Part shown: positions 7,757 through 61,064 of the stretch, in pieces
How positions within the stretch are numbered: position 1 is the stretch's first letter
Layout: every line of letters starts with the position of its first letter
Source: an uncultured Heliobacteriaceae bacterium
GTDB taxonomy: Bacteria > Acidobacteriota > Blastocatellia > RBC074
Direction: 5' to 3'
Assembly (NCBI GenBank): GCA_964563495.1
Contig: CAZLYK010000014.1
Coordinates: forward strand, 58 to 64,057
DNA: 64,000 nucleotides
Notes under the pieces: generated by a model
Databases searched by the model: none
What the model was told of the DNA's origin: nothing
Seen by the model: only the letters and a program-made list of their open reading frames with translations
Made by a program: the position numbers and the translations under genes

Positions 7757-7977
7757 GGTTTAGCTCCGAGTAAGCCCGCCGGCGGGATCGAAATTCAAGG
7801 CCTCACGGTCAAAGAATTTGCGATTATCATGCTGGATAGACTACATCAAGTTTTGTTTCAAGTTTGTCAGGTCGAACCCGGTGACCCTCCTCAATTCAAC
7901 AGCAAGAATCGGGGTGTCGGGGACAAAAATCGCTGTTATATTTCTTTCTGTAACGCGAATTGTTGAAAGGAACTGAG

Positions 7978-9057
7978 ATGAACAAGTCAGCAAAAACCAC
8001 GCGGCTCGCGGCCGCAACGGAGAACGATAGCCGCTGGACATCGATTGTCAACCGCGACCCTGAGGCAGACGGCAAATTCTTTTATTCGGTCAAAACCACC
8101 GGTGTCTACTGCCGCCCCTCTTGTGCCGCGCGTCTGGCGCGACCGGAAAACGTGCAATTCCATGCGACCTGCAAAGACGCCGAGAAGGCGGGGTTCCGTC
8201 CCTGCAAGCGTTGCAAGCCAAACGAGATTTCGCCGCCCGGACAACACGCCGCGAAAATTGCGGCCGCCTGCCGGTTGATCGAGGAGTCGGAGGAGGAGCC
8301 CAGTCTCGAAGAGCTGGCGAACCATGCGGGATTGAGCATTTATCATTTCCACCGCCTCTTCAAGGCAATGACGGGGCTGACGCCAAAAAAATACGCTGCC
8401 GCGCATCGCGCGAAGCTCGTGCGGAGCAAGCTCGGCAGGAGTAGTACGGTGACGGAAGCTATCTACGACGCCGGGTATAATTCGAGCGGACGATTTTACG
8501 CGACATCAAACGAGGTATTGGGTATGACACCTTCAAATTATCGTGGAGGCGGTGCTCGGACAGAGATCCGCTTTGCCGTCGGCGAATGCTCCCTGGGGTC
8601 GATTCTTGTCGCGCAGAGCGAGCGCGGGATTTGCGCCATTCTCCTCGGCGATGACCCGGACGCGCTGGCGCGCGATTTACAGGATCAGTTCCCAGAGGCC
8701 AATCTGATCGGCGGGGACGCCGAATTCGAACAGCTCGTCTCGAAAGTCGTTGGTTTTGTCGATGCTCCGGCGCTCGGATTGGATCTGCCTCTCGACGTGC
8801 AGGGGACAGCCTTTCAGCAGCGTGTCTGGCAAGCGCTGCGCAAAATTCCAGCCGGCTCGACCGCGAGCTATACCGAGATTGCTCGTCAAATCGGTTCGCC
8901 GCATGCGGTCAGGGCAGTCGCCCAGGCCTGCGGCGCAAATGTCTTGGCGGTGGCGATCCCTTGCCATCGTGTCGTGCGGAATGACGGCGCATTGTCGGGG
9001 TATCGCTGGGGCGTCGAGCGCAAGCGCACATTGCTTGAACGGGAGGGACAGGCATGA
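7978..9057 (+). CDS. ada: Bifunctional Ada: methylphosphotriester-DNA methyltransferase / AraC-type activator / O6-methylguanine-DNA methyltransferase
   Basis: ATG at 7978 after AAGGA. N-terminal Ada zinc domain (FFYSVKTTGVYCRPSCAAR..CKRCKP), AraC HTH (YHFHRLFKAMTGLTPKKY), and C-terminal MGMT active site IPCHRVV. Length (359 aa) is close to E. coli Ada. Confidence 0.9.
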   Translation: MNKSAKTTRLAAATENDSRWTSIVNRDPEADGKFFYSVKTTGVYCRPSCAARLARPENVQFHATCKDAEKAGFRPCKRCKPNEISPPGQHAAKIAAACRLIEESEEEPSLEELANHAGLSIYHFHRLFKAMTGLTPKKYAAAHRAKLVRSKLGRSSTVTEAIYDAGYNSSGRFYATSNEVLGMTPSNYRGGGARTEIRFAVGECSLGSILVAQSERGICAILLGDDPDALARDLQDQFPEANLIGGDAEFEQLVSKVVGFVDAPALGLDLPLDVQGTAFQQRVWQALRKIPAGSTASYTEIARQIGSPHAVRAVAQACGANVLAVAIPCHRVVRNDGALSGYRWGVERKRTLLEREGQA

Positions 9058-9080
9058 GAAGAAAATAGATCGGATTTCGA

Positions 9081-9620
9081 CTATCGCTGCATGATAATCT
9101 CCTGCGTGCAACGCCAGACGCCCTGCCGATCGCGCGTGAGCGGGCGGATGGAGAATGCGCTGCCTTCTTTGGCAGCGGCGCGAATGCGGTCGTCTAATGA
9201 CGGATCGCCTTCGAATACAATTTCAAAAACTCTCTCCTTGTAGCCCGGCGCGGTGACTACGTAATGGATGTGCGCCGGGATGCGATTGTTTGGATACGGC
9301 GCGGGTTTGATCGTGTTGTACTCGTAATAACCTTGGGCATCGGTGCGCATATAACCGCGCAGGCGCGGGTTGCGGTTGTCGTTGGTGTCGGGCGTGTAGA
9401 GCCCTTTCGCGTCGGTATGATAGACATAAACCGACGCACCGGCCAGAGGTGTCCTCCTCTCCGGTCCAAAAACCTTGCCCGAAACGATCAAACGCTCGCC
9501 GGGTTCATCTCTTGAAGTGATCGTGATTTTCGATGGCGCGTTCTTTTCAGCGACTTGCGGAGCCTGGATCGGGACGATCCATGACAGCGCAATCATGATC
9601 AGCAGGCAGATGTTTTTCAT
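9081..9620 (-). CDS. Secreted intradiol ring-cleavage dioxygenase-like protein
   Basis: ATG at 9620 after GAGGAG. Signal peptide [20 protein letters not shown]. Dioxygenase_C-type motifs ([45 protein letters not shown]). Confidence 0.7.
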
Positions 9621-14886: not shown

Positions 14887-15186
14887 GTCAGTTTGGCGGC
14901 GGGTAATTTCGGGTACAGCCGCGGGTAGATCGTCCTGGGCGAGCGTCGTCATCACGCATCGCGGATCGGGCAAGGCCACACTCAGTCGAACTCCCTCGCC
15001 GATCGCGAGATCATGGCCAATCCAGTCATGATGATGTCTGTTTCGATCTAGTCAAAACTTGATGTCTTGACGCAGAATAGTGACATCGATTGCCTGGGGG
15101 GCTGAACTTCCCGCAATCTTACTGCCCGCTCGACATATGTTGACGGGCGGTTCGCAGTGATCAACATTTGAAAGAGAGTGTGCTCC

Positions 15187-18129
15187 ATGCCATCCAAGTT
15201 CTGCAGTCGCTTGTGTTTCCTGGCTTTGAGCCTGAGCCTGATCAGTTCCGCCCTGGCGCAGTCGCCGCCATCGCCTGTGGTCCCCCCTTCAATCCCATCA
15301 TCGGCGGTCAAGGATCTGGCGCTGGCGCTGGCACAGGCTGCGTCAGAGGAAGAACAGGAGCGATTGCTGGCGCAGCAGAAAGACCTGGTCAACAGCTCGC
15401 TATTAGCCGCGCTCAAGGGCCTGATCCAGCCCCTCACCCGTAAAGGCGATAACGCTCAGGCTCTGAGAATCGCCCAGCTCGCAGTCCGGATTGGAGAGAG
15501 GATCGGAGACCGTCCGGGGCTGGGCGAGGCGATGACTTCTCTTGGAGCGAGCTACCTTAACCTGTACCGTTATGCGGAGGCTTTGAATTACCTTGAGAAG
15601 AGTCTCGTTATTTATCAAGAATCCGGCGATAAGCGAGGGATGGCGGGTGCGCTGCGATACCTCGGCAATCTCCACAGTAGACAAACACGTTTCGATCAGG
15701 CCTTCGAGTACTACAATCGAAGTCTGGCGCTGAGCAAAGAGAGCGGGGATAGAAGCCTGACCGCCTCGATTCTCAATGACATGGGCAGAGTATACGATTC
15801 GCAGGGACGTTATGAACTCGGTCTGGAGCATTTGGAGAAAAGCCGGGCGCTCAGTCAAGAACTGAACGACAAGGAGATGCAATCGACAGCCTTGAACAAC
15901 ATTGGCATTCATTATATTGATCAGGGCCGGTACGCGGACGCACTCGAATACCTTCAGCGGAGCGTCAAAGTTAACCAAGAGATGTGGAGCACAAATCAGC
16001 AGGGGTTGGCCGTTCGCCTGAATAATATCGGCATTATCTACAAACGCCAGGGCCGTTATGATCAGGCCCTGGAGTACTATCGCAAAAGCCTGGAGATCCA
16101 TGAAAAGGGTGGGGACAAAGGCAGAATCGCCGAGGCACAGAACAATATCGGAGTTATCTATAAAACGCAGGGACTTTTTGAGCAGTCGCTGGAGTGGTTG
16201 GGGAAAAGCCTGAAGAATTTTCGGGAGGTCAGCGCCAATGGCGGCATCGCCGCGAGTTTGAACAACATTGGCGACGTTCATCGCCGGGAGGGACGCTATG
16301 ATCTTGCGCTGGCAGCCTTCCGGGAGAGCCTCCGGATACGTGAAGAGATAGGGGACGGATTATCAATCGCCCTGACGCTGAATAATCTCGGCCGGCTGTA
16401 CCAGGACCAGGGCCGTTATTCCGAGATGCTCGAGGTCAGTCTCCGCGCCGCCAGACTGGCTGAGGAAAGCAATGATCCCGAAGGGCTCTGGAATGCCCAG
16501 AATAGCCTCGGCATAGCGCAGCGCGCACTAGGGCAGCCGGCGGCTGCTCGCCAGAGCTTTCTCGATGCCATCGCCACTCTCGAATTGCTGCGTCATCAAG
16601 TCGCCGGAGGCGCGCAGCAACAGCAAACTTTTCTGGAAAACAAACTCTCGCCCTGGATTGGCATGATCGACCTCCTCATCTCACAAGCTCATGAGGCTGA
16701 GGCCCTGACCTTTGCCGAACAGTCGAAGGCGCGAGTGCTGATCGACGTGCTTCAGGCCGGCCGCGACAGCCTCTATAAATCGCTTTCGCCGGAGGAACGG
16801 CAGGCAGAGGAGCAGAAGCGACTTGAGCTGGTTGCGCTCAACTCGCAGCTCACCGGCGAGTTGCGACGCAAACGGCCTGACCCCGCGCGCGCGGCCGGGC
16901 TGAAAGCCGAGGTCGCGCAGACCCGGCTCGAGTTCGAGGCGCTCGAAACCAGCCTCTACGTGGCCCATCCCGAACTGAAAGTGCACCGCGGTGAGTCCTC
17001 GATCATCAAAGCCGATGAACTCGCGGCCTTGTTGCCCGATGCAACGAGCGCGGCGCTTGAATACGTCGTGGCGGATGACAGGGCATTTCTGTTTGTCATG
17101 ACGAAGGCGGTTGGGAAAAAAGAAGCTGAGGTTCGGGTCTACACGTTGCCGATCAAACGAGATGAGCTAACAAGTCAGATCGAAGCTTTCCGGCAACAGC
17201 TTGCCGAACGCGACCTCGGCTTTCGCCCCTCGGCGGCAAAGCTCTATCAATTGTTGCTCAAACCAGCCGAGGCGCAGATTAAGGGGAAGACCAATCTGAT
17301 CATCGTGCCGGACAACAAGTTGTGGGACTTGCCATTTCAGGCGTTGCCGGCTATCGGGGGAAGGTTCCTGATCGAGAATGCCGCTATCTCTTATGCGCCG
17401 TCGCTCACCGTCCTAAGAGAGATGACCAGGCGACGAGAGAGTCAACAGACGGATACAGCCGGATTGGCCTTGCTGGCTCTGGGCAATCCGCTGCTGGGTA
17501 AAAAGACCTTTGAGCGCGTGACGCTGGCGCAGAGTAATGAAAGGCTCGCTCCGCTGCCGGAAGCCGAACAGGAAGTGAAGGCGCTGGGGCGGATGTATGG
17601 TGCGGCACGAAGCAAAGTCTACATTGGCCCGCAGGCCCGCGAAGATCGCGTCAAGAACGAAGCCGGCCAGGCCGGAATTCTTCACTTCGCCACGCACGGA
17701 AGCATGAACAATGCTTCGCCGATGTACTCGCATCTGGCCCTGGCGGAAGGCGACACCAACGAAGACGGGCTGCTCGAAGCCTGGGAGCTGATGCGGCTCG
17801 ATTTGAAAGCCGACCTGGCAGTGCTCTCCGCCTGCGAAACGGCGCGTGGCCGTTCCGGCGCAGGCGAAGGCATGATCGGATTGACCTGGGCGCTCTTCGT
17901 CGCGGGCGCGCCGACAACTGTCGTCAGCCAGTGGAAAGTCGAATCGGCCAGCACGCGTGATTTGATGCTCAGTTTTCATCATCAATTGCAAGCGCAGCCG
18001 GCGGCTGCAAAGATGAAACTATCGAAGGCCGAAGCCTTGCGGCAAGCGGCGTTGAAGCTCATGAAAAACCCGGAAACCAATCATCCGTTTTACTGGGCGG
18101 GATTCGTGCTGGTGGGCGACGGCAGGTGA
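15187..18129 (+). CDS. Secreted TPR-repeat CHAT-domain (caspase-like) protease, module 1
   Basis: ORF from GTG 15178, first ATG at 15187. Signal peptide ..CFLALSLSLISSALAQ. More than 10 TPR units (repeated LNNIG..Y..QGRYDQALEYY pattern). C-terminal CHAT domain with a putative His/Cys dyad (ILHFATHG ; LAVLSACETARG). Confidence 0.85.
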   Translation: MPSKFCSRLCFLALSLSLISSALAQSPPSPVVPPSIPSSAVKDLALALAQAASEEEQERLLAQQKDLVNSSLLAALKGLIQPLTRKGDNAQALRIAQLAVRIGERIGDRPGLGEAMTSLGASYLNLYRYAEALNYLEKSLVIYQESGDKRGMAGALRYLGNLHSRQTRFDQAFEYYNRSLALSKESGDRSLTASILNDMGRVYDSQGRYELGLEHLEKSRALSQELNDKEMQSTALNNIGIHYIDQGRYADALEYLQRSVKVNQEMWSTNQQGLAVRLNNIGIIYKRQGRYDQALEYYRKSLEIHEKGGDKGRIAEAQNNIGVIYKTQGLFEQSLEWLGKSLKNFREVSANGGIAASLNNIGDVHRREGRYDLALAAFRESLRIREEIGDGLSIALTLNNLGRLYQDQGRYSEMLEVSLRAARLAEESNDPEGLWNAQNSLGIAQRALGQPAAARQSFLDAIATLELLRHQVAGGAQQQQTFLENKLSPWIGMIDLLISQAHEAEALTFAEQSKARVLIDVLQAGRDSLYKSLSPEERQAEEQKRLELVALNSQLTGELRRKRPDPARAAGLKAEVAQTRLEFEALETSLYVAHPELKVHRGESSIIKADELAALLPDATSAALEYVVADDRAFLFVMTKAVGKKEAEVRVYTLPIKRDELTSQIEAFRQQLAERDLGFRPSAAKLYQLLLKPAEAQIKGKTNLIIVPDNKLWDLPFQALPAIGGRFLIENAAISYAPSLTVLREMTRRRESQQTDTAGLALLALGNPLLGKKTFERVTLAQSNERLAPLPEAEQEVKALGRMYGAARSKVYIGPQAREDRVKNEAGQAGILHFATHGSMNNASPMYSHLALAEGDTNEDGLLEAWELMRLDLKADLAVLSACETARGRSGAGEGMIGLTWALFVAGAPTTVVSQWKVESASTRDLMLSFHHQLQAQPAAAKMKLSKAEALRQAALKLMKNPETNHPFYWAGFVLVGDGR

Positions 18130-18170
18130 CGATAAGAGACAGGATAAACAAGTTGATTTCAGCTGGATCG

Positions 18171-19487
18171 TTAGCTGCGCGATGCCCGCAGATTGGACAG
18201 CAGGCGGCTGACAATCTCTGAATTCGGATTAGCTTTTTGCAAAACGCGTAATTCCCGTTCGGCTTCGTCCAGCATCCCGGCCTTGAGATAGAGAAGAGCC
18301 AGCGTCAGGTGAGATGACGCATAGGCGCGCCGAGCCCGCATGAGTTCATTCGCCTTCGCCTGATCGAGAATGCGGAATTTCGCCTGCGGCGCCGGCGGAC
18401 GCGGGGCGATCAATTCCTGCCCGTCTTTGATGGCTTTCACCTGCCAGGAATAGATTCCGCCGCGTCTGAGGGACTGCGGCGGCGTCCACGAACCATCGGA
18501 GAGTTGTGGGCTGGTTGCCACCAGGGTGAACGTGTCATCGTAAATCTCTACCAGATAGCCGGTCGCGCCATCCAGCCGGGACCAGCGGAAAGCCGGGCGA
18601 TCCGTCAGTATTACTTTTCCGACCGGCTCGATCGGTGAAAACTTGCCATCCTGGCTGTCTCCACCTCTGATCGTGCCACTCCCTGGCCGGACCAATCCCG
18701 CCAGAAGTGGTGATTTTTCAAATCGCTGATCGGTGAGTGCTCCCTTGACCATTTGCTGGTAAGCCGGAGGTAAGTTGTCAGTCCCTGAAAGTTTGCCTTC
18801 CCGATCCAGTATCACCTGGCCTCCACCATCATTGAGTTGGGCGATCAACATCCCTCCTGCGTCCTCGATAGGCGGGGTCGGAGATACGATCGGAGTTACT
18901 ATCGGTGAGGGTATAGTTTTGGCTATCTCCGGCTTCATCTCTTTCTGTTGCAGCGCCTGCCAAATCAGCACACCGGCTGCGATCAACAAAAACGCCGCCA
19001 ACGCCGAGCTGAAAACGAGCGCGGGAGATCCGGGTACGACTGAAAAGATCGTTCTCACAAGCCGACGCCATCGATTTTCAGTCACGACGCCAATCATGGA
19101 AGGCTGATATTCACGGTTCAGTTCGGAGGCGACCTCGGCTCTGAAAACGAGCAGGTCATTCACTGTCATGTCGCACTGCCCGCAATTGGACAGATGATCT
19201 TTGACAAGCTGCAGCTCCCCGCCGGCCAGGGCGCCGTCAACATATTCAGCCGTTTGTTCATAAGTCAGATGCGCCCGCCCCGCCGGCGAAGAGACCGTCT
19301 CTGCCGCTTCACCGAAGACATCGGATTGCAGCGCAAAGAAAGCCATATCGCCATTCATCGCCCTATCGACCTGCCGGCGGCACGTTTCGCAAACGCCCAG
19401 GTGATCGGATGCAGACAGCAATTCGGCTGCTGAGAGCGCACGACGGCCGTAGTCATCTATCTGGTTGTTCGTAAGATGTTCGGACAA
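18171..19487 (-). CDS. Membrane-spanning anti-sigma factor with two zf-HC2-like motifs and an extracytoplasmic domain ending in a TPR
   Basis: TTG start. DHLGVCETCRRQV and DHLSNCGQCDMTV (Hx3Cx2C twice). One TM helix (LVFSSALAAFLLIAAGVLIW). C-terminal ~230 aa are predicted outside, with a TPR-like end. Lies immediately downstream of a sigma-factor gene. Confidence 0.65.
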   Translation of the reverse strand: MSEHLTNNQIDDYGRRALSAAELLSASDHLGVCETCRRQVDRAMNGDMAFFALQSDVFGEAAETVSSPAGRAHLTYEQTAEYVDGALAGGELQLVKDHLSNCGQCDMTVNDLLVFRAEVASELNREYQPSMIGVVTENRWRRLVRTIFSVVPGSPALVFSSALAAFLLIAAGVLIWQALQQKEMKPEIAKTIPSPIVTPIVSPTPPIEDAGGMLIAQLNDGGGQVILDREGKLSGTDNLPPAYQQMVKGALTDQRFEKSPLLAGLVRPGSGTIRGGDSQDGKFSPIEPVGKVILTDRPAFRWSRLDGATGYLVEIYDDTFTLVATSPQLSDGSWTPPQSLRRGGIYSWQVKAIKDGQELIAPRPPAPQAKFRILDQAKANELMRARRAYASSHLTLALLYLKAGMLDEAERELRVLQKANPNSEIVSRLLSNLRASRS

Positions 19488-19570
19488 TGATTTTATACCT
19501 CACAGCCGGGGACCCGACTGCCTTCCTACTCGCATAAGTTGCCAAAATGCGCCGGATATTACCACCGGGT

Positions 19571-20626
19571 TCAAATAAATCCTTTCAACCGCCGCGCCAA
19601 TCGTTCACGCGCCGATTTGCGCGCATTGATGACCTGCTGCCGCGTCATTTGCAGCAAGTCGGCAACCTTCGCATCTTCAAGCGGCAATTCGTGCCAGATC
19701 TCCGCCAGCTTTTCGGCGCCCATCTCCAGCGCCTCCGCGAGTTGGCGAAATGTCGCGATCCCGACGGCCGGAAATAGCGCGAGGCAGCCCCTTCCTTCAG
19801 CGTCTCTCAGGTTAAGCAACAACGCCACACGCTGATTCAATGGGAGTTGCCGTACCTCCTCCCAGAGCCTCTCTAAAAAGATCCGTTTCTCGACTTGCCA
19901 CGCGGCATCCGGTTTTCCGTCGGGGATTTCAAACTGGGCATCATTTCCCGGTTGGTCATTAAATTCAACCGGTTGATCCTTGATCTGCAAAAGCGAAACC
20001 AGCGTGGCGATTAGTTTATCGAATTCGATCGGGCCGCCGAGACAATCGAAAATCACCGCCAGCGCACCACTCCAATCCGCCTGGTTGCCGGTTTTGAGTA
20101 ACCTCATTCGGGCCAGCAGGGTCTCATCGTCTGACAGTTGTCTGAGCCGTTCCTCGGTTGCGGGATTCTTCCGTCTCTGCCAGACCGCAAAGCCGGCCAT
20201 CTGTTTTCTATTTTCATTTTGCCAGATCGCAAAACCGGCCTGGCGCGTGAGCAGGTAATAAAGACGATTTTTAAATGCGTGCCGCTCCGGAGACTGCCGG
20301 CGCATCCAGCGAGAACAAGCGCGATGCGCGATCACCGCCGCCAACCCGCGCAGATCACTGATCGGGCGGGCGTCGGGTCGTTCACGAAACTGCTGTATGG
20401 CAGCCAGTAATTGCACGATGGCTTCCTGCTGGAGGTCATTTGCATCAGCTTGCCTGGTCGCATGATAAGAATTTAGATGAAGCTTATAGGCGATGACCCC
20501 CTTGATCACCGGCTCGGCGTGTTGAGTAATAAGGTGTGAGACAAGATCGCCGACCTGTTCGTCGTCAGTCAGCAGCAATAATGGTTTGAGCAAGGGATCG
20601 ATCTCTGCTGAGTGAGTTCTCGCCAT
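19571..20626 (-). CDS. Sigma-70 family (ECF-like) sigma factor with a long insertion between regions 2 and 4
   Basis: 351 aa. Region-2-like segment (DLQQEAIVQLL..LRGLAAVIAHRACSRWMRR) and region-4 HTH (LPLNQRVALLLNL..VADLLQMTRQQVINARKSARERLARRL) are separated by about 130 aa. Confidence 0.65.
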   Translation of the reverse strand: MARTHSAEIDPLLKPLLLLTDDEQVGDLVSHLITQHAEPVIKGVIAYKLHLNSYHATRQADANDLQQEAIVQLLAAIQQFRERPDARPISDLRGLAAVIAHRACSRWMRRQSPERHAFKNRLYYLLTRQAGFAIWQNENRKQMAGFAVWQRRKNPATEERLRQLSDDETLLARMRLLKTGNQADWSGALAVIFDCLGGPIEFDKLIATLVSLLQIKDQPVEFNDQPGNDAQFEIPDGKPDAAWQVEKRIFLERLWEEVRQLPLNQRVALLLNLRDAEGRGCLALFPAVGIATFRQLAEALEMGAEKLAEIWHELPLEDAKVADLLQMTRQQVINARKSARERLARRLKGFI

Positions 20627-22470: not shown

Positions 22471-23754
22471 TCAAGATTTTGGTTGGAGCAGCCGCTCGCC
22501 AAGCGTGTAGGCTCTTGTCTCGGGATGATAGATCTTCCAATCGAACCAGTAATCTTTCAGCACGATGAGTTTCTTCAGTTGTTTTCCGGCGAGTGGGCCG
22601 CTCACTGCTTTGCCGGTGAAATCCCACGTGGTTGCGGTCTCAGCATCGGTTAGCTGGATCGGCGAGGTTTTAGGGATCACGAAAAATTCGAGCGTGCGCC
22701 CGTCAACTGTCCGCTCAAAGGCCCTGACGGATTTGTTGTCATCACCCAAGACAATAAACAGAGGCGTTGCGCGATTGCCAACGCCAAGACTGTCGATGAT
22801 CAGCCGTTGTTTTTCCAGGTCAGCCAGCGGATAGGCGATCGCCTTGCCGTTGATCACCAGCCCCGCTATCAGCGTGCGCGGCGGCAGTTTGTCATTGGGA
22901 TTGACGGGAGTAACCACCGGCAGCTTGGCGTATTCCTTCTCCCAATCAGCGTCCTCATATTTCTGCTTTACCCGCTCATCCGGCTTGAGCACGCGCCCTT
23001 GACGGTTTTCACGTTTCCATAGAGCAAAGCTAAGCTCATCGTTATAAACCCGGGTCAGCCTTTTTCCCTTGAACGGCCCGTGAATCGCTTCGCCCGACAC
23101 CTGCTGCCACCAGGTGCCCGTCTCCTCATCGCGCATGATGAAGTTTTGGTTGTTGATGCCCGCCAGGTGGAACGTCAGCTTCTTCCCGTCAACTTCGGAT
23201 TCCCACACCAGACCGGTGTGACAGAGCGTTCAGTAAGTCGCCGTGATCGGCTTGCCCCCGACGACATCATTAATCACGTGGTGATAGCCCATCTGGCGCA
23301 CGGGATAGGCCACTGCCTCGCCATTGACTTCGACCGCCATGACCATATCGCTGTCGGCGACAAAGCCGGCTTCGCCGATGCCGGCATAATCAGCGTTCGG
23401 CAACGGATTGAACATCCACTCGAAATGGTTCTGCCGCGCAAACCAGGTAACGACGAGCAATGGCGCAAACAGCACCGGCATTGCCAATCGGCTCCACCAG
23501 CGCAGATCACGCCACAGCCGTATGGAGAGGGCGAGAAACAAGACCATCGACGCAACTGTCACTATCGGCGACAGGCGGCGCAGCCGGTAAGACCATTCAA
23601 CGCCCGCTGCGGTCTGCGCTTTGAATGGCATGATGACGAATACCGGGATTGCCACCATCGCCACAGTTGCAACGACAATCAGTAGAAGCAACAGCCATAA
23701 CCTCCAACGTCCCGGTTTGCCCGTCTTGCTCGCCTCGTTTGATCTAGTGTTCAT
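22471..23754 (-). CDS. DUF3179 family membrane-anchored protein with one in-frame TGA (23230-23232): candidate selenoprotein (UxxC), alternatively a nonsense pseudogene
   Basis: ORFs 23230..23754 and 22471..23208 share a frame and are separated by one TGA plus 7 sense codons. The joined 427-aa product is a complete DUF3179 architecture (..VAYPVRQMGYHHVINDVVGGKPITATY-TGA-TLCHTGLVW..TGTWWQQVSGEAI..YWFDWKIYHPETRAY). The TGA aligns with the first Cys of the family's TYCPLC motif as I recall it. Confidence 0.6.
23204..23220 (-). promoter_or_regulatory. SECIS-like mRNA hairpin downstream of the in-frame UGA
   Basis: mRNA CACACC-GGUCU-GGUGUG has a perfect 6-bp stem and a 5-nt loop. The stem starts 9 nt after the UGA and the loop 15 nt after it. 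The GGUCU loop resembles the apical loop of the E. coli fdhF SECIS (from memory). Confidence 0.5.
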
Positions 23755-23755
23755 T

Positions 23756-23977
23756 TCACGACGTTAACAGCGCCACGATTTCCGCTTGTCTGGCCAGCAT
23801 CTCTGCCTGATTCGCCAGCATAGCTTCGAGCTTGTTTTGATTGGACTGAATGACCCCCTGATAGGTCAGAATAATCCTCTGATTTTCCTGGATAAGCTTC
23901 TGGTAGTCTATGGTCGGTTCCTGGTTGGCCGGAATGCACTCCTGATCTTTGATCACATCATTCTCAGTCATCGTCAT
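23756..23977 (-). CDS. Small Gln/Asn-rich coiled-coil hypothetical protein (first gene of the DUF3179 operon)
   Basis: 73 aa (or 71 from the ATG at 23971, which has better AGAGG spacing). Heptad-like QENQRIILTYQGVIQSNQNKLEAMLANQAEMLARQAEIV. Its stop lies 1 nt before the DUF3179 ATG. Confidence 0.45.
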   Translation of the reverse strand: MTMTENDVIKDQECIPANQEPTIDYQKLIQENQRIILTYQGVIQSNQNKLEAMLANQAEMLARQAEIVALLTS

Positions 23978-24401: not shown

Positions 24402-27400
24402 CTACTTCGGTTCGCCCATGAGCACAAATGACGCCCAGTAATACGGTGCTTGCCATTGCGGCTGCCTGGACAGCTCCGACTGCGCCGCCTGCAGCGCCGC
24501 CGCCGGTCGCAGGCCTTTGCTCAACATCCCGCGGTAGAACTTCGTCATCAACTCCGCCGTCGCCCGGTCATTGACATCCCACAAACTGACGAGTACGCGC
24601 GCCGCCCCCGCGTGGATAAACCCGCGCGTCAACCCGACCAGCCCCTCGCCCCGAATTTCTTTGCCAAGCCCAGTCTTGCATCCGCTCAGCACCACCAATT
24701 CTGCGGGCAGGTTGAGGTTGAACACTTCGACCATACGCAGGAAGCCATCCTGCGTACGGCCTTCGCGGTCAAGCAGCGAGAGGACCAGCCCCGAAAGTTC
24801 GGGATGCCTGTCGTTGAGCAAACCGTGCGTGGCGAAATGGACATAACGGTATTGGCCGAGCGACGGATCGAGCGCCGCCGCTTGATTGGCCGCAAAATCG
24901 AACGCGCCGAAGCTTTCGGTTTTGGGCGCGAGGGCGAGAATCGCCCGGGCTTCCACCCGCGTGTAAGGCAGACGCGTGAGGCTGCCACGTTCACCTTCCA
25001 ACCCGGCAGATTGCACGGCGCGCGTCAGATCGTCGGTTGCTATCGTCGCCGTCAAATTCTCTTTAGGCGCTTGGCGTTCACGGGCGATCCGTTGACGGAC
25101 CTCCTTGGGCAGACGTTCATCCTCCGCTTCAAAGACGGGATCGGCCAGTACGGCCAGCAGTTTGGGCGCGGGCTCTCGGTCTCTCAACTCGCGCCGCAAC
25201 ACGGCCAGCGCTGAAGCCGACGGCAAGTGGACGACTTCGTGATTGGCGATAAGAGGGACGGGGCGAGCGGTTCTTTTTCCCCTGGTCTCCCCGACGCCCA
25301 TTCCCCCGCTCACAGGCAGCGCCGCAAAGGGAATCAATTGCAATGTGCCATCGGCCACGATCAGCAATCGGTGTTGTCGTAGTTCCGCCGCGACCGGTCG
25401 GAGGATCATCCGGCTGAGCTCGACGCCCGCGGCGCTCAAATCTTTGTCGGCTTGCTGAAGGCGTTGCGAACGCTGCGCCGGTTCCTCGAATTTGACCGGG
25501 CGGTTGCGCGCCGTCAGCAGTTCATAGTAGCGCCTCGCCGCCTTCTCGATCACTTCGCGTCTGGGCAGTTGATAGCTGTTGAAGGCCTTGCCGGTGATGG
25601 CGAAGAGGAAACTCTTCTCTTCGCCCAGCGCGTATTCGAGCAGAATCGTATTGGCGTCAACTACGACCTCTTTTTGGATTTCCACCAGCCCAAGTGGCTG
25701 CGGTTGCGTGAGGGCTGCGTAGCGAGGGCTGCGCTCGCGGATTTCGGCTTGCACCCGTTCGTAGTCGGAGGTCAATTCCGAGATGGATCTGGCGAGGGTG
25801 GCGGACTGCGTTTCGGTATGCTTGCCGGAAAGCAGGCGCGTCTGTTCGGCGGCTTTGGCCTCTAGCTGGCTTTGCAATCGCTTTTCCTGCGCGAGCAGCG
25901 CCGGCTCTACCCCCTCACGAATATCGACGCGGGCTTCGATCAGCGATTCAAGCAGGCTGCGGGCGCGGGCGCGCTCGCTGGTTTGGAACGCCAGGCGGTC
26001 GTGCCCGGCGGCGGGTTGACGGCGGTTCAGCTCCATGAGCAATTCCATGTAGTCGGAGTAAAACCGCTGCCTTTTGCTCAACAGTGTGGCGCGCTGCGCT
26101 GATAGCGCGGCTTTGCTACGCAGGCTTTCAACCAACTTGATCGCCGTCTCGAAATGCGCGCGCGCGCCGGTCAGGTCGCCACGCTTCCAGGCAATGGTCC
26201 CGAGCAGCCATTGCGTGATGCTGCCAAAATTCAGGAAGGCGGCTTTTTCACTCAGACCCTGGGACTCGCGGCAAGCTTCAATGGCCCGGTCATACTCACC
26301 CAGCCTGGCGTGGGCCTCGCAAAGGTAATTGAAATCGGCGATCACCTCATAAGGATCGAGAGGTCGTAGGCTGTTGATAGCAATGGCTTGGCGGAGCGCC
26401 TCAACCGCTTTCGGGTTTTCTCCCAACGCCAGGTAAGCCCGCCCCAGTCCGGAGAATGCGAGAAACTGGATGCGGGTATCACCTTGATTCTGCAGGAGCG
26501 GGATAGCCTCCAGGTATTTGTCGCGGGCGAGCTGGTAATCGCCGAGGAGAAGGTGGATTTCTCCAATTTGTGCGAGCGTAACGGCGTCGCCTTGCGCGGC
26601 TCCCGCGACCGACCGCAGCGACATCGATTCTTCGTAGTAAGCGATGGCCCGGCGCTGATCGCCCAGGTTGAAGGAGGTTGTGCCAAGATTCTGCAGCGCT
26701 GTCGCCAAATTATAACGGTCGGCGGTGGCCCGATAGATTTGCGCTGCCTGGTGGAATAACTCGAGAGCCTTAGTTAGTTCACCCATCGTCCCATAGAGTT
26801 TGCCCAAAGCAATGCAGGTGTAGGCCACGGCCCGTGGATGATCGAGTCGGCGGCGGAGCGCCAACGATTGTTCGAAGTAATCCACCGCCGTTCGAGGGTC
26901 ATTCAGATTGCGATGGAGGCGGGCCAACTCGTACAAGACTGTCGCTTCGTCCTTACGCGCCTCGACCTCACGGAAAAGGGTGAGCGCCTCTTTTAAGTAG
27001 CGCACTGCTTGCTCTGGCTCGACCCCAAAATGGAGTTCCCCCAGAAAGAACAGGCCGTCGGCCTCTCCCCACCGGTCGCCGCTCGCTTGCCAGATGGGTA
27101 GCGCGGCCGCCACTTTCGGAATGCTCTGCCGGCGGACTTCGCGTGGTTGGAGGAAAAGATCGAGGGCCTCGACGCCGTCCATGATCCGGCGGGCTTGTAA
27201 GCGCAGGGAATCTTTTTCGAGGGCTGGTCTGAGTTCTTCCAGCTTGAGCGCGTAACTCCCATCAACCTTGCTGGAGACCTGACTAAGTTCAACTAGATAG
27301 TGGCCGCTCGTTTCCGCAATCAGGTCAACCCTGCTCTGACTACTGAAGAGATGGGTTCCGTTCTTCTCCACCAGCTTCTGACCGGCGGGAGATATGATTC

Positions 27401-27683
27401 TGAGAATGACGCTGCCCGTTTCGATCGTCAGGCGGCAGTATTGCCCCGCCGTCAGCGGCAGCAGATAAACGTATTTTTGCCCGTCCCGCAACTGCTGCTC
27501 GTAGCTGACCCCGAGGTTCAGTGACGGCGGGTTTTGCGTCAGCTTTGCCGCCGGTTGCTGGGCCGCGAGCGCCGGAATTGGATTGGCCGATAACGCCGCC
27601 ACCAAATACAAGCCGGCAAGAAGGCTGGCCACACGGAAAATTGGATTTGGCAATGTCGAAGGCGAGCAAGAGCTTCTGGTCAT
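24402..27683 (-). CDS. Secreted TPR-repeat CHAT-domain (caspase-like) protease, module 2
   Basis: 1093 aa. Signal/anchor (FRVASLLAGLYLVAALSANPIPALAAQ), an N-terminal beta-sandwich-like module, about 10 TPRs, a coiled-coil linker, and a C-terminal CHAT domain with a putative dyad (YVHFATHG ; LVVLSGCKTGLG). Lies 33 nt downstream of the anti-sigma gene. Confidence 0.85.
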   Translation of the reverse strand: MTRSSCSPSTLPNPIFRVASLLAGLYLVAALSANPIPALAAQQPAAKLTQNPPSLNLGVSYEQQLRDGQKYVYLLPLTAGQYCRLTIETGSVILRIISPAGQKLVEKNGTHLFSSQSRVDLIAETSGHYLVELSQVSSKVDGSYALKLEELRPALEKDSLRLQARRIMDGVEALDLFLQPREVRRQSIPKVAAALPIWQASGDRWGEADGLFFLGELHFGVEPEQAVRYLKEALTLFREVEARKDEATVLYELARLHRNLNDPRTAVDYFEQSLALRRRLDHPRAVAYTCIALGKLYGTMGELTKALELFHQAAQIYRATADRYNLATALQNLGTTSFNLGDQRRAIAYYEESMSLRSVAGAAQGDAVTLAQIGEIHLLLGDYQLARDKYLEAIPLLQNQGDTRIQFLAFSGLGRAYLALGENPKAVEALRQAIAINSLRPLDPYEVIADFNYLCEAHARLGEYDRAIEACRESQGLSEKAAFLNFGSITQWLLGTIAWKRGDLTGARAHFETAIKLVESLRSKAALSAQRATLLSKRQRFYSDYMELLMELNRRQPAAGHDRLAFQTSERARARSLLESLIEARVDIREGVEPALLAQEKRLQSQLEAKAAEQTRLLSGKHTETQSATLARSISELTSDYERVQAEIRERSPRYAALTQPQPLGLVEIQKEVVVDANTILLEYALGEEKSFLFAITGKAFNSYQLPRREVIEKAARRYYELLTARNRPVKFEEPAQRSQRLQQADKDLSAAGVELSRMILRPVAAELRQHRLLIVADGTLQLIPFAALPVSGGMGVGETRGKRTARPVPLIANHEVVHLPSASALAVLRRELRDREPAPKLLAVLADPVFEAEDERLPKEVRQRIARERQAPKENLTATIATDDLTRAVQSAGLEGERGSLTRLPYTRVEARAILALAPKTESFGAFDFAANQAAALDPSLGQYRYVHFATHGLLNDRHPELSGLVLSLLDREGRTQDGFLRMVEVFNLNLPAELVVLSGCKTGLGKEIRGEGLVGLTRGFIHAGAARVLVSLWDVNDRATAELMTKFYRGMLSKGLRPAAALQAAQSELSRQPQWQAPYYWASFVLMGEPK

Positions 27684-27715
27684 TGTCGTGCGCTCCTTTC
27701 CGTAGCGGCTGAGGG

Positions 27716-28705
27716 TTATTTCCGTTGACGTTCCAAATGGCGAATTTCATCGAGCAAGTCGTGGCTGAGCCGATCCGCGAGCTTGTCCGCATCGCCAGTG
27801 TATTGACGCCCGTTCGTGCGGGGTGTCAACGGCCAGATGACCTGTCCGCCGGCGTTGACTATACGCGCGAAGGCCGAGATACGCCGGGAAGGCACCGGCG
27901 GCGCTTCCCGCACGGTCAGCTTGAGGGCGATCTCGGCGGCTTCGCGGTCTTCGGTCAGCATGAATTGCCCGCTCGACTGCAAACGCTGTTTGAGCGATTC
28001 TGCAAATTGACGGCGCTGTGGATGTGAACCGCTGAGTTCGAGGTAAAGCCGCTGTCCGGCGAGCAGCGCATTGACAGCCTCTTCCCGCTCGCTTCTGACT
28101 AGATCCCGGTCCGGGGCAGCCCCCCGGCCGCGGACATCAATCGCGATCACCTCGTCGCTTGCCGGCTCTGGGGCGGGCGCACCGATCATGGGAGAGGGCG
28201 AAGGTGCAAGACTGGCTGTCACGCTCGGCGCGGGAGCCGGCGACGTTTGCGCGACGTCCGCCGGTTTCGGCCGCGATTGCCTGAAAAGAAGATAACCAAG
28301 CCCTCCGAGAATCACCACCAGCAGCGCAAAGGCGAGTGCAGGCTTGAACGAAACTTGAAATGGCCAGAGCGCGCTCAGCCAAGATGTCTGGTCAGGCGCC
28401 GGCGCGGGCTTTGACAATTTCACCAAATGAGGTCGCAGCCTTTGCCACGAGCTTTCGATCTCATTCGGCGTAACCTCGGCCCGGCCGGATTTTTGAAGCT
28501 CGATGAATTCGTTCGCTTCGCGATAGATTTCGAGACAGGCCGCGCATTGCGAGATATGCTCGCGCGCAAACGGTAGTTCACCGGGCGCAATCTCTCCCCG
28601 GCAGTAATCGTAAATCTCCTCCACCCCCAAATGGCGACCGGGCGGATGATTGAATTGCTCGCCTGCGCGCTTCATATAGCGCCGAAACTCTCCGATCTGA
28701 TCCAT
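27716..28705 (-). CDS. Membrane-spanning anti-sigma factor (zf-HC2), module 2
   Basis: N-terminal HISQCAACLEIY (Hx3Cx2C). One TM helix (ALAFALLVVILGGLGYLLF), a Pro/Ala/Ser-rich linker, and a ~130-aa extracytoplasmic C-terminal domain. Starts 21 nt after the ECF sigma stop. Confidence 0.7.
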   Translation of the reverse strand: MDQIGEFRRYMKRAGEQFNHPPGRHLGVEEIYDYCRGEIAPGELPFAREHISQCAACLEIYREANEFIELQKSGRAEVTPNEIESSWQRLRPHLVKLSKPAPAPDQTSWLSALWPFQVSFKPALAFALLVVILGGLGYLLFRQSRPKPADVAQTSPAPAPSVTASLAPSPSPMIGAPAPEPASDEVIAIDVRGRGAAPDRDLVRSEREEAVNALLAGQRLYLELSGSHPQRRQFAESLKQRLQSSGQFMLTEDREAAEIALKLTVREAPPVPSRRISAFARIVNAGGQVIWPLTPRTNGRQYTGDADKLADRLSHDLLDEIRHLERQRK

Positions 28706-28725
28706 AGACAGCTTCCGAGGTTTTT

Positions 28726-29346
28726 TCAGAAATCTATCTTGCCGAAATATCGTCCCAGTTTATTTCGCAAATCGCCTTTCGCCTTGTGCAGGTGCGCTTT
28801 AACCGTGTTGAGCGAAATGCCCAGCAAATCAGCGATCTCATGATATTTCAGTTCACTGTTGACGTAGAGCAATGTGCAGCGGCGACACTGTTCGGGCAAT
28901 TCGAGCAGCGCGTCACGGAGCAGTGCCAGCTTCTCCTTCTCCAGGACCACCTCCTGCGGATCGGGGCCTTGCGCCGCAAGGCCGGTAATGCTCCCGCTCT
29001 CTACCGGTTCACTTCCCGCTCTTTCCCCGACGATGTCGAGATGCAGCCCTTTGCGTTTCCCGGCATTGGCGTGTTCCCTGTCCCGGCGCCAGACGTTGAG
29101 GGCAATCTTGAAGAGCCATCCCTCAAACTTCGACCCGTCGTGCAGGTCCTCGATAGAAGTAAAGACAGAAAAAAACGTGTTCTGGGTTAGGTCGCGCGCA
29201 TCTTCGGGCTTCATCCCTTTGTAAAGAAAGAAGCGGTGGATCGAGGAATAGTAGCGGGAATGAACCTCCCCATAGTTCGCTTCGACCTCCTCTCCGCGCC
29301 GGATTGCGCTGATGATCTCTTCGGTTGTCCGGTGAGAGGTGTTCAC
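28726..29346 (-). CDS. ECF-type RNA polymerase sigma factor, module 2
   Basis: 206 aa, GTG start. Region 2 (YYSSIHRFFLYKGMKPEDARDLTQNTFFSVF..WLFKIALNVWRR) and region 4 (LPEQCRRCTLLYVNSELKYHEIADLLGISLNTVKAHLHKAKGDLR). Confidence 0.85.
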   Translation of the reverse strand: MNTSHRTTEEIISAIRRGEEVEANYGEVHSRYYSSIHRFFLYKGMKPEDARDLTQNTFFSVFTSIEDLHDGSKFEGWLFKIALNVWRRDREHANAGKRKGLHLDIVGERAGSEPVESGSITGLAAQGPDPQEVVLEKEKLALLRDALLELPEQCRRCTLLYVNSELKYHEIADLLGISLNTVKAHLHKAKGDLRNKLGRYFGKIDF

Positions 29347-42380: not shown

Positions 42381-44093
42381 ATGAATTCGTTGGATTCTGG
42401 CTCCAGCGCACAGCCAGTCGAAGCGACAACCCGGTCTAATTTTATTCGTGACATCATCATTGAGGACATCAAACTCGGCAAAAACGGCGGGCAGGTGCAG
42501 ACGCGCTTTCCGCCTGAACCCAATGGCTACCTGCACATTGGCCATGCCAAAGCGATTTGTCTGGATTTCGGGCTGGCGGCGGAATTTGGCGGCAAATGTA
42601 ATCTGCGTTTCGACGATACAAACCCGTCAAAGGAAGAGACCGAATACGTGGAAGCGATCATGCAGGATGTCGAATGGCTGGGCTTCCAATGGGACGGCTT
42701 GTATTACGCATCCGACTATTTTGGACGACTTTATCAGTGGGCGATTCAGTTGATCAAAGCGGGGAAAGCTTATGTCTGCGACCTGAATGCTGACGAAATT
42801 CGCGAATATCGCGGCACCCTGACCGAGCCAGGCAAGGAGAGCCCCTACCGGAATCGTTCGATCGAAGAGAACCTGGATCTATTCGAACGCATGAAAGCCG
42901 GAGAGTTTCCGGATGGTTCGCGCACACTGCGCGCGAAGATCGATATGTCTTCACCGAACCTGAACCTCCGCGATCCGGTCATGTATCGCATTCTGCATAT
43001 GGCGCACCATCGCACCGGCGATCAGTGGTGCATCTACCCGATGTACGATTACGCTCACGGGCAATCGGATTCAATCGAGCATGTGACCCACTCGATCTGC
43101 ACGCTCGAATTCGATAACAATCGCCCGTTATATAATTGGTTTATCGAGCAGCTGGGCATATTTCCATCTCAGCAGTATGAATTCGACCGTCTCAGCATTA
43201 CCTACACGCTGCTGAGTAAGCGTAAGCTGCTCAAGCTGGTCGAAGACGGCCATGTCAACGGATGGGACGACCCACGCATGCCCACGTTGTCGGGAATGCG
43301 CCGGCGCGGCTATACGCCCGAAGCCATCCGCAACTTTTGCGCGAATATCGGCGTCTCCAAGACCAACGGCGTCACGCAACTGTCGCATCTGGAATATTTC
43401 CTGCGGGAGGATTTGAACAGGCATGCCCTGCGCGTCATGGCAGTACTAAATCCATTGCGCGTCGTCATCGATAATTATCCCGATGATCTGGTCGAAGAAA
43501 TGGAGGCGGTCAATAACCCTGAAGACGCGAGCGCGGGAACGCGTAAAGTCCCTTTTTCGAAAGTGCTCTATATCGAACGAGAAGATTTTCGTGAGGATCC
43601 GCCGAAGCAATTCTACCGGCTGGCGCCGGGCCGCGAAGTACGCCTGCGCTACGGTTATCTGATCACCTGCCAAAGCGTAGTCAAAGACGCCAACGGCAAC
43701 ATGATTGAGCTGCGTTGCACCTATGATCCTGAGACGCGCGGCGGCAACACGCCGGATGGGCGCAAGGTCAAATCCACAATCCACTGGGTCTCGGCGGCTC
43801 ACGCTGTCGACGCCGGGGTGCGCCTCTACGAGACCCTCTTTACGAAAGAAGATCCGAATGATTTTGAAGAAGGCCAGGACTTCACCGTCAATTTGAATCC
43901 GCATTCGCTTGAGACGCTGACCGGCTGCAAGGTTGAACCGGGCCTTCGTCACGCAACACCGGGCGCGAGATATCAGTTCGAACGGATGGGATACTTCTGT
44001 GTGGACCCGGCATCGGAATTGGGAAAGCCGGTCTTCAACCGGACGATCGGTTTGCGAGATACCTGGGCCAAGATCGAGCAGCGCTCCAAATAA
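42381..44093 (+). CDS. glnS: Glutamine--tRNA ligase
   Basis: AAAGGAG RBS. 570 aa. HIGH motif ([14 protein letters not shown]), KMSKS-type LLSKRKL, and end-to-end GlnRS-like sequence including the C-terminal anticodon-binding beta-barrels. Confidence 0.92.
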
Positions 44094-44102
44094 TCATAAG
44101 CG

Positions 44103-44150
44103 GCAGCAATTTTCAGGTTTGTGCGACCGCGAGGACGCGGTCGCACAGGG
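44103..44150. repeat. Palindromic hairpin element, partly eroded copy (D2)
   Basis: gcagcaattttcaggtttgtgcgaccgcg-agga-cgcggtcgcacaggg. The core gtgcgaccgcg/cgcggtcgcac is perfect and the right outer arm has diverged. Lies between the glnS stop (44093) and the gltX ATG (44160). Confidence 0.85.
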
Positions 44151-44159
44151 GAACAATTC

Positions 44160-45839
44160 ATGCAAGCTGAATGGCGCGCCATAGCTGAGTTGCTCTTTCC
44201 GCAATCGAGGGACCTCCCTTCCCTTGAGCAACTCAGAGAGAGATACCCTGTCAGAGCACTGCCTGAGGGCGCGATGGTCACCCGGGTTGGGCCAAGTCCG
44301 ACTGGAATGATGCATATCGGAGGACTGTACGTCGCTCTCCTCAACTACAAGCTTGCACGCCAGACGGGCGGCTTATTCTTTCTGCGGATTGAAGACACCG
44401 ATACCAAGCGGAGAGTCGAGGGGGCTTATGAGACAATCGTAAACTCCTTGATCGATTATCAGCTAATCCCGGACGAAGGCCCGATTCGAACTGAGGGAGA
44501 TCAGTATATAGAGCGAGGGCATTATGGCCCTTATCTGCAAACCAACCGCAAGAGTATTTATCATGCTTGCGCTTTTGATCTCGTTCGCCGGGGAATCCTC
44601 TATCCCTGCTTTATCTCGGAGACCGAGCTTGAGCAGATCAGGGAAGAGCAGCGGGCGAAAGGGTTACGGCCGGGTATTTATGGAGCCTGGGCCAGGTGTC
44701 GCAACCTTACTTCCTCAAAAGTAGAGGCCCAACTAAAAGCAAACGACTCATTCGTTCTACGATTGCATTCAACGGGCGATGCCGACAAGTCGGTTAGTTG
44801 GAACGATGGGGTGCGTGGAAGACTGACCTTGCCGGAATATAGCATTGATGCGGTCATGATCAAATCAGACGGCATTCCAACCTATCACTTCGCCCATCTG
44901 GTTGATGATCACTTTATGGGCACGACACATGTAATTCGTGCCGAAGAATGGATATCTTCGGTCCCTCTGCACTTGCAACTATTTGAACGCATGGGATGGC
45001 AGGCGCCCGATTATGCGCATGTCAGTGCCATTCAGAAGCTCGGTGAGAAGGGCGGAAAGCGAAAGCTTTCCAAGAGCAAAGACCCCGAGGCCGATGTGCA
45101 GTTTTACTGGCGCAGTGGTTTCCCCAGGGAATCCGTGATCGAATACCTGCTGAACCTGGCAAATCCGGACTTTGAGGATTGGCGGCGCGCAAACCCCGAC
45201 GCGCCGCATTCTTCTTTTCAGCTCTCATTGGAGAAGGTGGGGCAAGCCGGTCCCCTGGCCGATATGGTTAAGCTGGAGAGCATCAGCCGCGAAGTCCTAA
45301 ACCGAATGCCCGCCAAAAGGTTATATGAGTACTCTGCCAATTGGGCAGCGGATTACGCCCCGGAACTGGCCGCGGAAATGGCGAAGGACCCTGATTATAC
45401 AAGCCGGGCTCTCGACGTAGAGCGTGACCCGCTCGATTCGGCCAAGCGGCTGATCACACTCAAAGATATAGATACACTATTAGCGCCGTTTTTCGATCGA
45501 TTCCTGCCCGAAGTTGATCAACTCCCGTTCCCGCCGAATGTCGGCAGCGAGGATCGGAATGCCGTTTTGACGCTCGTCAAGGAGCGCTATCAAGAGGAAG
45601 ATTCATCGCCGCAGTTTTTCGAGCGGCTTAAAGAAATCGCCGCTGAGTTAGGATTCGCCCCAACGGTCAAGGACTACAAAAAACATCCGGAAGAGTATAA
45701 AGGTCATGTCGGTGATGTTGCCATGATCGTTAGAGTAGCAATATTCGGCAGCACCCGCTCGCCGGATCTTGGTCTGGTCATGCAGGTATTAGGAAGGGAA
45801 AGAGTCGTGCGGCGATGCGACCGGGCGATGAGAGCTTAG
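44160..45839 (+). CDS. gltX: Glutamate--tRNA ligase (GluRS family, long form)
   Basis: ATG at 44160 (the track ORF start lies inside the hairpin repeat). Motifs VTRVGPSPTGMMHIGG, FFLRIEDTDTKR, GPYLQTNRKSIY and KLSKSK. 559 aa. Confidence 0.85.
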   Translation: MQAEWRAIAELLFPQSRDLPSLEQLRERYPVRALPEGAMVTRVGPSPTGMMHIGGLYVALLNYKLARQTGGLFFLRIEDTDTKRRVEGAYETIVNSLIDYQLIPDEGPIRTEGDQYIERGHYGPYLQTNRKSIYHACAFDLVRRGILYPCFISETELEQIREEQRAKGLRPGIYGAWARCRNLTSSKVEAQLKANDSFVLRLHSTGDADKSVSWNDGVRGRLTLPEYSIDAVMIKSDGIPTYHFAHLVDDHFMGTTHVIRAEEWISSVPLHLQLFERMGWQAPDYAHVSAIQKLGEKGGKRKLSKSKDPEADVQFYWRSGFPRESVIEYLLNLANPDFEDWRRANPDAPHSSFQLSLEKVGQAGPLADMVKLESISREVLNRMPAKRLYEYSANWAADYAPELAAEMAKDPDYTSRALDVERDPLDSAKRLITLKDIDTLLAPFFDRFLPEVDQLPFPPNVGSEDRNAVLTLVKERYQEEDSSPQFFERLKEIAAELGFAPTVKDYKKHPEEYKGHVGDVAMIVRVAIFGSTRSPDLGLVMQVLGRERVVRRCDRAMRA

Positions 45840-60801: not shown

Positions 60802-61064
60802 GAAGGCGAATCTTGGCAATCTTTTCCTTGCCGTCTCGAAGCAATTGGCTCTCAGCAAGGCCGTCGCCAAAGAATTCAATATCATTTCACATCTCTAGCG
60901 TTGTCTCGATTTAATGCCCTGGCAATATGGCCAGGCCATTCATTAGTCGCGTTCTCCGCTTCTTGCCTTGAGCGTGCAGCCCCGCCGCTTTGTATCTGCC
61001 GCCACTTCGTGGTAATAACTGTCCGAATCCTCCTAGTTCTTATTTTGCCTGGGGAGACAGAGTA

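Follow-up and report, generated by a model that had tools for sequence, protein, structure and literature searches.

A gene on the minus strand of the 64-kb stretch of DNA analysed here (the window), which makes up nearly the whole of a 64.6-kb contig from a soil acidobacterium, most probably encodes a single 427-residue protein of the DUF3179 family in which an in-frame UGA codon at 23232..23230 is decoded as selenocysteine (Sec); a probability of roughly 0.88 is given to this reading. The gene adds one more member to a selenoprotein family that was already known, and its Sec occupies the position known for that family. In steps taken from established bacterial Sec biology, a hairpin downstream of the UGA (stem CACACC/GGUGUG, loop GGUCU) would act as a bacterial selenocysteine insertion sequence (bSECIS), whose apical loop would be bound by SelB carrying Sec-tRNA(Sec), so that Sec would be delivered once the UGA is in the ribosomal A site. 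Within the protein, Sec175 would serve as attacking nucleophile in a redox motif, UxxC, and may form a selenenylsulfide with Cys178.

The DUF3179 gene and its in-frame UGA

The coding features are as follows.

22471..23754, minus strand: complete DUF3179 gene, predicted to encode a selenoprotein; 427 sense codons including one Sec-UGA, with the stop codon TGA at 22473..22471
23230..23232, minus strand: in-frame UGA, probably read as Sec (residue 175), at the first position of UxxC
23221..23232, minus strand: codons of the UxxC motif, TGA ACG CTC TGT (U-T-L-C), placed by the sequence and the alignment of homologues

Read from 23754 to 22471, the minus strand forms a single frame of 427 codons whose sole interruption is the TGA at 23232..23230. 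The list of open reading frames (ORFs) for the window divides this frame into two pieces, 23754..23233 (174 amino acids) and 23208..22471 (245 amino acids, with a GTG start), and these do share a frame, as an earlier note on this DNA had stated, being separated by the TGA and seven sense codons (ACG CTC TGT CAC ACC GGT CTG). The 427-residue read-through product contains GGKPITATY, then the UGA, then TLCHTGLVWESEV. When Cys is put at the TGA, the Pfam profile for DUF3179 (PF11376) gives one continuous match across that codon, covering residues 123-413 and profile positions 12-292 of 292, with an E-value of 1.3e-63 and a score of 215.6 bits against a Pfam gathering cut-off of 27; the note's view that the two ORFs are halves of one DUF3179 protein is borne out by this match. 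Elsewhere, TGA behaves as an ordinary stop, ending 15 of the 34 Pfam-supported genes in the window, and so the genetic code has not been reassigned.

The note had also placed the UGA at the first Cys of a conserved CxxC motif, and the homologues agree. A protein search with the window protein returned 3658 relatives, and TYCTLCHTG is found in 12 of 12 full-length homologues (41-61 % identical) at the place where the window has TY-UGA-TLCHTG. An exhaustive search gave 11,100 DUF3179 representatives at 50 % identity (E ≤ 0.001). Within an alignment of 109 diverse representatives of the wider family, C175 is kept in 100 and C178 in 99, with no other cysteines being conserved. The wider family includes CxxT and CxxS variants, as well as members that have His but lack both Cys.

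The comparative set consists of 80 loci, one genome per GTDB species, with protein identities of 56-80 %, nearly all of them from metagenome-assembled genomes (MAGs) of Blastocatellia, Pyrinomonadaceae or Chloracidobacterium. The orthologues align to residues 1-426 in one frame, and mean identity to the window protein is 61 % and 65 % for the two halves; both halves are under purifying selection. All 80 loci carry TGA at the Sec codon, followed by an almost invariant ACGCTCTGTCACACCGGTCTGGTGTGG, while the codons on either side vary freely, and all 80 have the hairpin as well. No other stops or frameshifts accompany the TGA in these 80 species, and the frame upstream of it is open for at least 133 codons in all 81 sequences and for at least 150 in 80. 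Three loci from other 50 %-identity clusters (L087-L089) also carry TGA and the same element, which in two of them is nearly identical to that of the window and in L089 has a few substitutions. An independent assembly of the same organism (Logan SRR14932511) is identical in sequence.

The nearest full-length homologue, at L083 1661-2899 (JGI Ga0683568_0021510; protein P0001), is 61 % identical and has TGC (Cys) at the Sec codon; the next 30 nucleotides (nt) match the SECIS of the Sec forms at every position. Either this locus switched from Sec to Cys very recently and its SECIS is a fossil, or the TGC is a base-call variant, the contig being a single one of 4.7 kb.

The RNA element downstream of the UGA

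Two features were mapped at the level of the RNA.

23203..23221, minus strand: putative SECIS hairpin, 7-bp stem (a U-G pair plus CACACC/GGUGUG) and 5-nt apical loop GGUCU, drawn from fold energy and pair counts
23200..23232, minus strand: block conserved at the nucleotide level, namely the UGA and the next 30 nt including synonymous sites, drawn from codon entropy

The hairpin starts 9 nt past the UGA and its loop starts 15 nt past it, with CACACC at 23220..23215, GGUCU at 23214..23210 and GGUGUG at 23209..23204, exactly as had been proposed; a U-G pair (23221/23203) lengthens the 6-bp stem to 7 bp; the computed energies run from -9.0 to -10.7 kcal/mol. On its own, the fold is unremarkable, having a z-score of 0.16 against shuffles for a 76-nt region, and its significance therefore rests on comparison with other sequences. 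Synonymous variation was measured as codon entropy among the sequences that have the consensus amino acid. By this measure, codons +1 to +8 after the UGA show only 0.10-0.45 bits, codon +9 being the single-codon Trp, and the mean over codons +1 to +9 is 0.24 bits; the other conserved degenerate codons of this gene, 96 in number, average 1.31 bits (Mann-Whitney p = 1.5e-6). Two more distant Cys homologues (L084 and L085) spell the same CTLCHTGLVW peptide with other codons, lack the conserved hairpin and have only weak alternative folds (-6.6 and -5.2 kcal/mol versus -10.2 for the window), and thus the nucleotide conservation is not forced by the protein.

The substitutions that do occur largely respect the helix. 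Counted over 19 distinct variants, the proposed pairs form in 88.8 % of cells, compared with 25-56 % when the partners are slid. In three species (L049, L069 and L071), CAC...GUG has become CAU...GUA with the helix retained; pair 15-27 changes from C-G to U-A in three variants, and pair 12-30 changes from U-G to C-G in four distinct variants. Two loci, L049 and L082, have a reshaped 7-nt loop that retains the GG start, together with an extra G-C pair at the base of the stem. Taken together, these patterns indicate that the downstream RNA element is under selection.

The loop also resembles that of the Escherichia coli fdhF SECIS, a likeness that the earlier note had drawn and that holds, with the hexamer GGUCUG present at the loop in both. 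The E. coli fdhF sequence, TGACACGGCCCATCGGTTGCAGGTCTGCACC..., is present in 5419 of 5426 genomes under fdhF. The two elements are alike in lying within the coding region, just past the UGA, and in having a small apical loop that starts with GGUC; they differ in that the loop begins 18 nt after the UGA in fdhF versus 15 nt in the window, and in that the window element is a short perfect helix of 6-7 bp without the long lower helix of fdhF. The stem of the fdhF SECIS has a bulged U, which the window element lacks, and the RNA of the Moorella SelB-SECIS complex has a GGUCU loop. As set out in the consensus passage of PMC13188914 (Fig. 2A), bSECIS elements have an apical loop of 3-9 nt, an upper stem of 4-16 bp, G at loop positions 1 and 2, a UGA-to-loop spacing of 16-37 nt and an energy of -7.5 kcal/mol or lower; against that passage, the window hairpin fits in its loop (5 nt), its stem (6-7 bp), its GG start and its energy.

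Several observations weigh against Sec decoding directed by this hairpin. Counted as intervening nt, the UGA-to-loop spacing is 15, which is 1 below the range that the same passage quotes for most bSECIS elements; counted from the U, it is 18 nt, and the consensus text there states no counting convention. Covariance models lend the hairpin no support, in that no Rfam family, SECIS included, matched the window at its gathering score, and at E ≤ 10 the region 22900..23500 gave one unrelated ALIL hit only and no SECIS. The hairpin is also too conserved for much covariation, with double changes in only two of the eight counted pairs (the 7-bp stem and one lower pair). Finally, the 64-kb window contains no tRNA at all, and a Pfam scan of 44 of its ORFs found no selA, selB or selD. 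The search for the machinery was carried further, and neither the window nor about 1.3 Mb of related loci contains a tRNA-Sec detectable by ARAGORN; tblastn with approximate sequences of E. coli SelA, SelB and SelD found nothing in the window and LepA alone in two related loci (L061 and L075). Since the Sec machinery is not seen in the contig, decoding by SelB is something that we infer. Acidobacteria do include Sec users (PMC1794560).

The window holds no second selenoprotein candidate by a scan for ORFs split by TGA, and a scan of the window and all loci for TGA followed by a hairpin with a GGUNN loop gave no further candidate; one at 62207 was dropped because it does not lie in a coding frame.

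Protein architecture and alternative explanations

Two further features of the protein enter here.

23437..23706, minus strand: membrane anchor at the N-terminus (roughly residues 17-106) comprising three predicted transmembrane helices, placed by the AlphaFold2 model of P0001 and by hydrophobic stretches
23278..23283, minus strand: codons of His158-His159, the wider-family motif [YW]-H-[HE], which ends 15 residues ahead of Sec

The architecture was taken from P0001, the closest Cys form, as modelled by AlphaFold2 (pLDDT 90.3, pTM 0.86). In this model, the helices (6-31, 40-74 and 78-99) are followed by an all-beta domain of two similar subdomains, and the CxxC is at a turn that joins two predicted beta strands in the Rieske-like subdomain. 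Because the N-terminus and the loop between the second and third transmembrane helices are positively charged, the protein is predicted to have an N-in, C-out topology, with the DUF3179 domain outside the cytoplasm; the lipoprotein-like signal peptides of other family members likewise point to an extracytoplasmic domain. Searches of PDB sequences with the profile and with the subdomain found nothing meaningful and no solved structure related by sequence, and Foldseek gave no global match for the full model. For the Sec-bearing subdomain, Foldseek's matches were nearly all to Rieske ferredoxins (3dqy, 3gce and 5bok) and NirD-like small subunits (3c0d and 4aiv), the best being 3c0d_B (probability 0.99, target-normalised TM-score 0.58), 3gce (0.98), 5bok (0.96) and 3dqy (0.90), and the full model gave similar Rieske-fold matches. 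TM-scores were 0.5-0.6 when target-normalised and 0.40-0.45 when query-normalised, with E-values from 0.006 to 1. The window protein lacks the CxH...CxxH of Rieske proteins, its own pattern being HH-x15-UxxC, and it does not match the Rieske family (PF00355), giving no Pfam hit at E ≤ 10 and an hhalign probability of 0.4 % against Rieske ferredoxins; the likeness is at the level of the fold only.

The favoured role is that of a redox-active UxxC that would use selenenylsulfide chemistry on this Rieske-like scaffold. Alternatively, Sec could be a metal ligand rather than a redox nucleophile, with H158, H/E159, U175 and C178 forming a Rieske-derived metal or cluster site that would lie in an extracytoplasmic, membrane-anchored protein of soil Acidobacteriota, possibly tied to Cu or Fe handling. 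The Rieske-fold matches favour such a site, as does the spacing of 17 residues between H158 and U175, which equals that between the ligands His45 and Cys62 in the verified sequence of the toluene dioxygenase ferredoxin. The histidine positions are also well kept, H158 being present in 101 of the 109 representatives and position 159 being H in 61 and E in 35 (96 combined), and some loci have CcoG-like, YtkA-like or TonB-receptor neighbours. However, none of the Foldseek E-values falls below 0.006, the query-normalised TM-scores are low, and profile-profile comparison with Rieske ferredoxins and the Pfam search were both null. Moreover, the CxxT and CxxS variants and the His-only members fit a redox motif better, and an extracytoplasmic domain on ordinary membrane anchors is a poor site for an iron-sulfur cluster. 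A metal-ligand role is therefore considered rather unlikely, but if it were true, the protein would have a type of Sec-metal site not known outside hydrogenases and Mo/W enzymes.

Gene neighbourhoods do not settle whether the role is redox or metal binding. No neighbour is conserved over the 80 loci, the commonest, a TonB-dependent receptor, being present in only 24; other frequent neighbours are FG-GAP/UnbV_ASPIC proteins (20), an esterase (11), a CcoG-like polyferredoxin (10), an AhpD/CMD-like CxxC protein (9) and a YtkA-like protein (7). In the window, the DUF3179 gene is flanked by a 73-residue ORF without a family match, a pair of ATP-binding cassette transporter genes and a gene for a CHAT-TPR protein. 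The 73-residue ORF (23756-23977, minus strand) matches no Pfam family, and a single nt separates its end from the start codon of DUF3179; gene calls on the independent Logan contig include it as well, but it is not a conserved neighbour at other loci. The AhpD/CMD-like protein, which has 430 residues and a CxxC of its own (ANGCRYCTLHQ), is encoded directly upstream of DUF3179 with a stop/start overlap in its 9 loci (for example L002/L003, about 8157-9449), and it is a possible redox partner in this subset of genomes.

As for the decoding itself, the UGA might be read through with a residue other than Sec: Cys, Ser or Trp could be inserted by a suppressor tRNA or by a tRNA(Cys) that resembles tRNA(Sec), in which case the hairpin would stimulate read-through or recruit a SelB-like factor with a different amino acid. 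Acidobacteria do carry allo-tRNAs resembling tRNA(Sec), which may suppress nonsense codons, and selC*-type tRNA(Cys) may decode UGA in other phyla (PMC5389517); the lack of Sec machinery in the window also fits such an arrangement. Yet what allo-tRNAs do is itself a hypothesis, TGA serves as a normal stop in the window, the hairpin has the defining loop features of bSECIS elements (a small loop with a GG start) and resembles the fdhF loop, and DUF3179 is already catalogued as containing Sec. Insertion of another amino acid is accordingly judged improbable.

Less probable again is a split gene, in which translation would stop at the TGA and restart at the GTG at 23208 to give a membrane fragment of 174 residues and a soluble fragment of 245, the conserved RNA serving to couple termination to reinitiation. 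Gene callers do report these two ORFs in about 100 database clusters, and the GTG lies only 21 nt past the stop, but no Shine-Dalgarno sequence precedes it, it corresponds in the Cys forms to the Val of a conserved LVW, and the break would fall within the conserved CxxC and a predicted beta hairpin. The seven intervening codons spell TLCHTGL, the same as in Cys homologues, and in L049 and L082 the codons of this stretch change almost only synonymously; in L049, seven codons across this stretch and the next Val codon are off consensus, six of the changes being synonymous and one turning Leu to Ile. This agreement with the Cys forms, together with the near-synonymous changes in L049 and L082, shows that the stretch is translated. 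That the TGA and hairpin are kept in 80 species with suppressed synonymous variation is taken to rule out a split gene, a pseudogene and a sequencing error alike. The idea of a pseudogene, or of a fault in sequencing or assembly that put TGA in place of TGC or TGT, is already refuted by the comparative data, even though only one substitution (A to C or A to T) separates the codon from Cys and TGC is present in the relative L083: the TGA is found in 80 of 80 species without other lesions, the halves remain 61-65 % identical to the window protein, an independent assembly is identical and the downstream RNA is under selection.

Annotation, other observations and known systems

Sec decoding in a DUF3179 protein remains the preferred reading, and the family is not new to selenoprotein biology. 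DUF3179 (pfam11376) was listed as a selenoprotein family with the motif UxxC/T in 2022 (PMC9312934) and again in 2026 (PMC13188914); the examples that these reviews name are MBW1804167.1 and MDJ0986319.1. The 2022 review credits the DUF3179 selenoprotein to Zhang & Gladyshev 2007 (PMC1976440), a paper that uses names such as OS_HP1 and not the term DUF3179. Additionally, the NCBI homologue MET0556717.1 is named 'DUF3179 domain-containing (seleno)protein'; no NCBIfam model matched the window protein, and so the copy of NCBIfam that was searched holds no matching model to account for this name. The earlier note's overall interpretation thus stands as regards a selenoprotein gene, with Sec in place of the first Cys and a well-placed SECIS, whereas its description of the selenoprotein as unreported does not, in view of the two reviews and the NCBI product name. 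Because DUF3179 is already on published lists, the case has little weight as a discovery.

Its value lies elsewhere. Of the 120 best clusters at 90 % identity, about 100 (P0003-P0120) consist of C-terminal fragments of 234-249 residues, including NCBI MBO0724803.1, 27 of the best 150 representatives at 50 % identity begin right past the CxxC, and no full-length, Sec-annotated version of the window clade is among the matches listed. Public catalogues systematically cut the gene into a 174-residue and a 245-residue 'protein', and the consensus UGA-N9-CACACC-GGUCU-GGUGUG could be used to re-annotate such split genes. The window gene is a clean example of the family in soil Acidobacteriota, with a SECIS that is unusually invariant, and the Rieske-like Sec subdomain, along with the conserved HH...U/CxxC, offers a testable starting point for the function of DUF3179.

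Some of the genomes that carry close copies bear odd labels. Five MAGs (L009, L023, L028, L031 and L032), whose copies are 61-77 % identical, are labelled 'Heliomicrobium sp.', a Bacillota genus in the NCBI taxonomy, and the L034 MAG is labelled Planctomycetota. Because all close relatives are otherwise Acidobacteriota, these labels probably reflect mislabelling or mis-binning rather than gene transfer.

Elsewhere in the window, similar modules lie on both sides of the DUF3179 gene (15178-20626 and 24402-29346); each encodes an extracytoplasmic-function-type sigma factor and a large TPR-CHAT protein (983 and 1093 amino acids), along with a probable anti-sigma protein, which has zf-HC2 in one module and matches no family in the second. 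At 42381-45839 (plus strand) are tandem genes for class I aminoacyl-tRNA synthetases of the Glu/Gln type, one GlnRS-like with both anticodon-binding domains and the other GluRS-like. The longest ORFs of both strands overlap at 60882-63708, where the plus-strand ORF covers only positions 154-272 of the Oxidored_FMN profile and the minus-strand ORF has no family and looks non-coding; a frameshift or faulty assembly may affect this old-yellow-enzyme-like gene. At 7960-9057 (plus strand), an uninterrupted ORF with no in-frame TGA encodes a full-length Ada-type methylated-DNA-protein-cysteine methyltransferase, whose family has Sec members elsewhere (PMC9312934, PMC13188914).

Compared with other UxxC and CxxU redox selenoproteins (thioredoxin-, DsbA-, Prx- and AhpD-like), in which Sec takes the place of one Cys in a CxxC pair and which have Cys counterparts in related organisms, the predicted location of the UxxC and the CxxT/S variants of DUF3179 similarly fit a nucleophile with a resolving residue, although the modelled DUF3179 fold, being all-beta with two repeated subdomains, is not thioredoxin-like. 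With the known DUF3179 selenoproteins, the window protein shares the Pfam domain, the position of Sec as the first residue of the only conserved CxxC and the existence of Cys homologues, and nothing essential differs; the window copy comes from a clade of Blastocatellia/Pyrinomonadaceae in which the protein has a membrane anchor of three helices.

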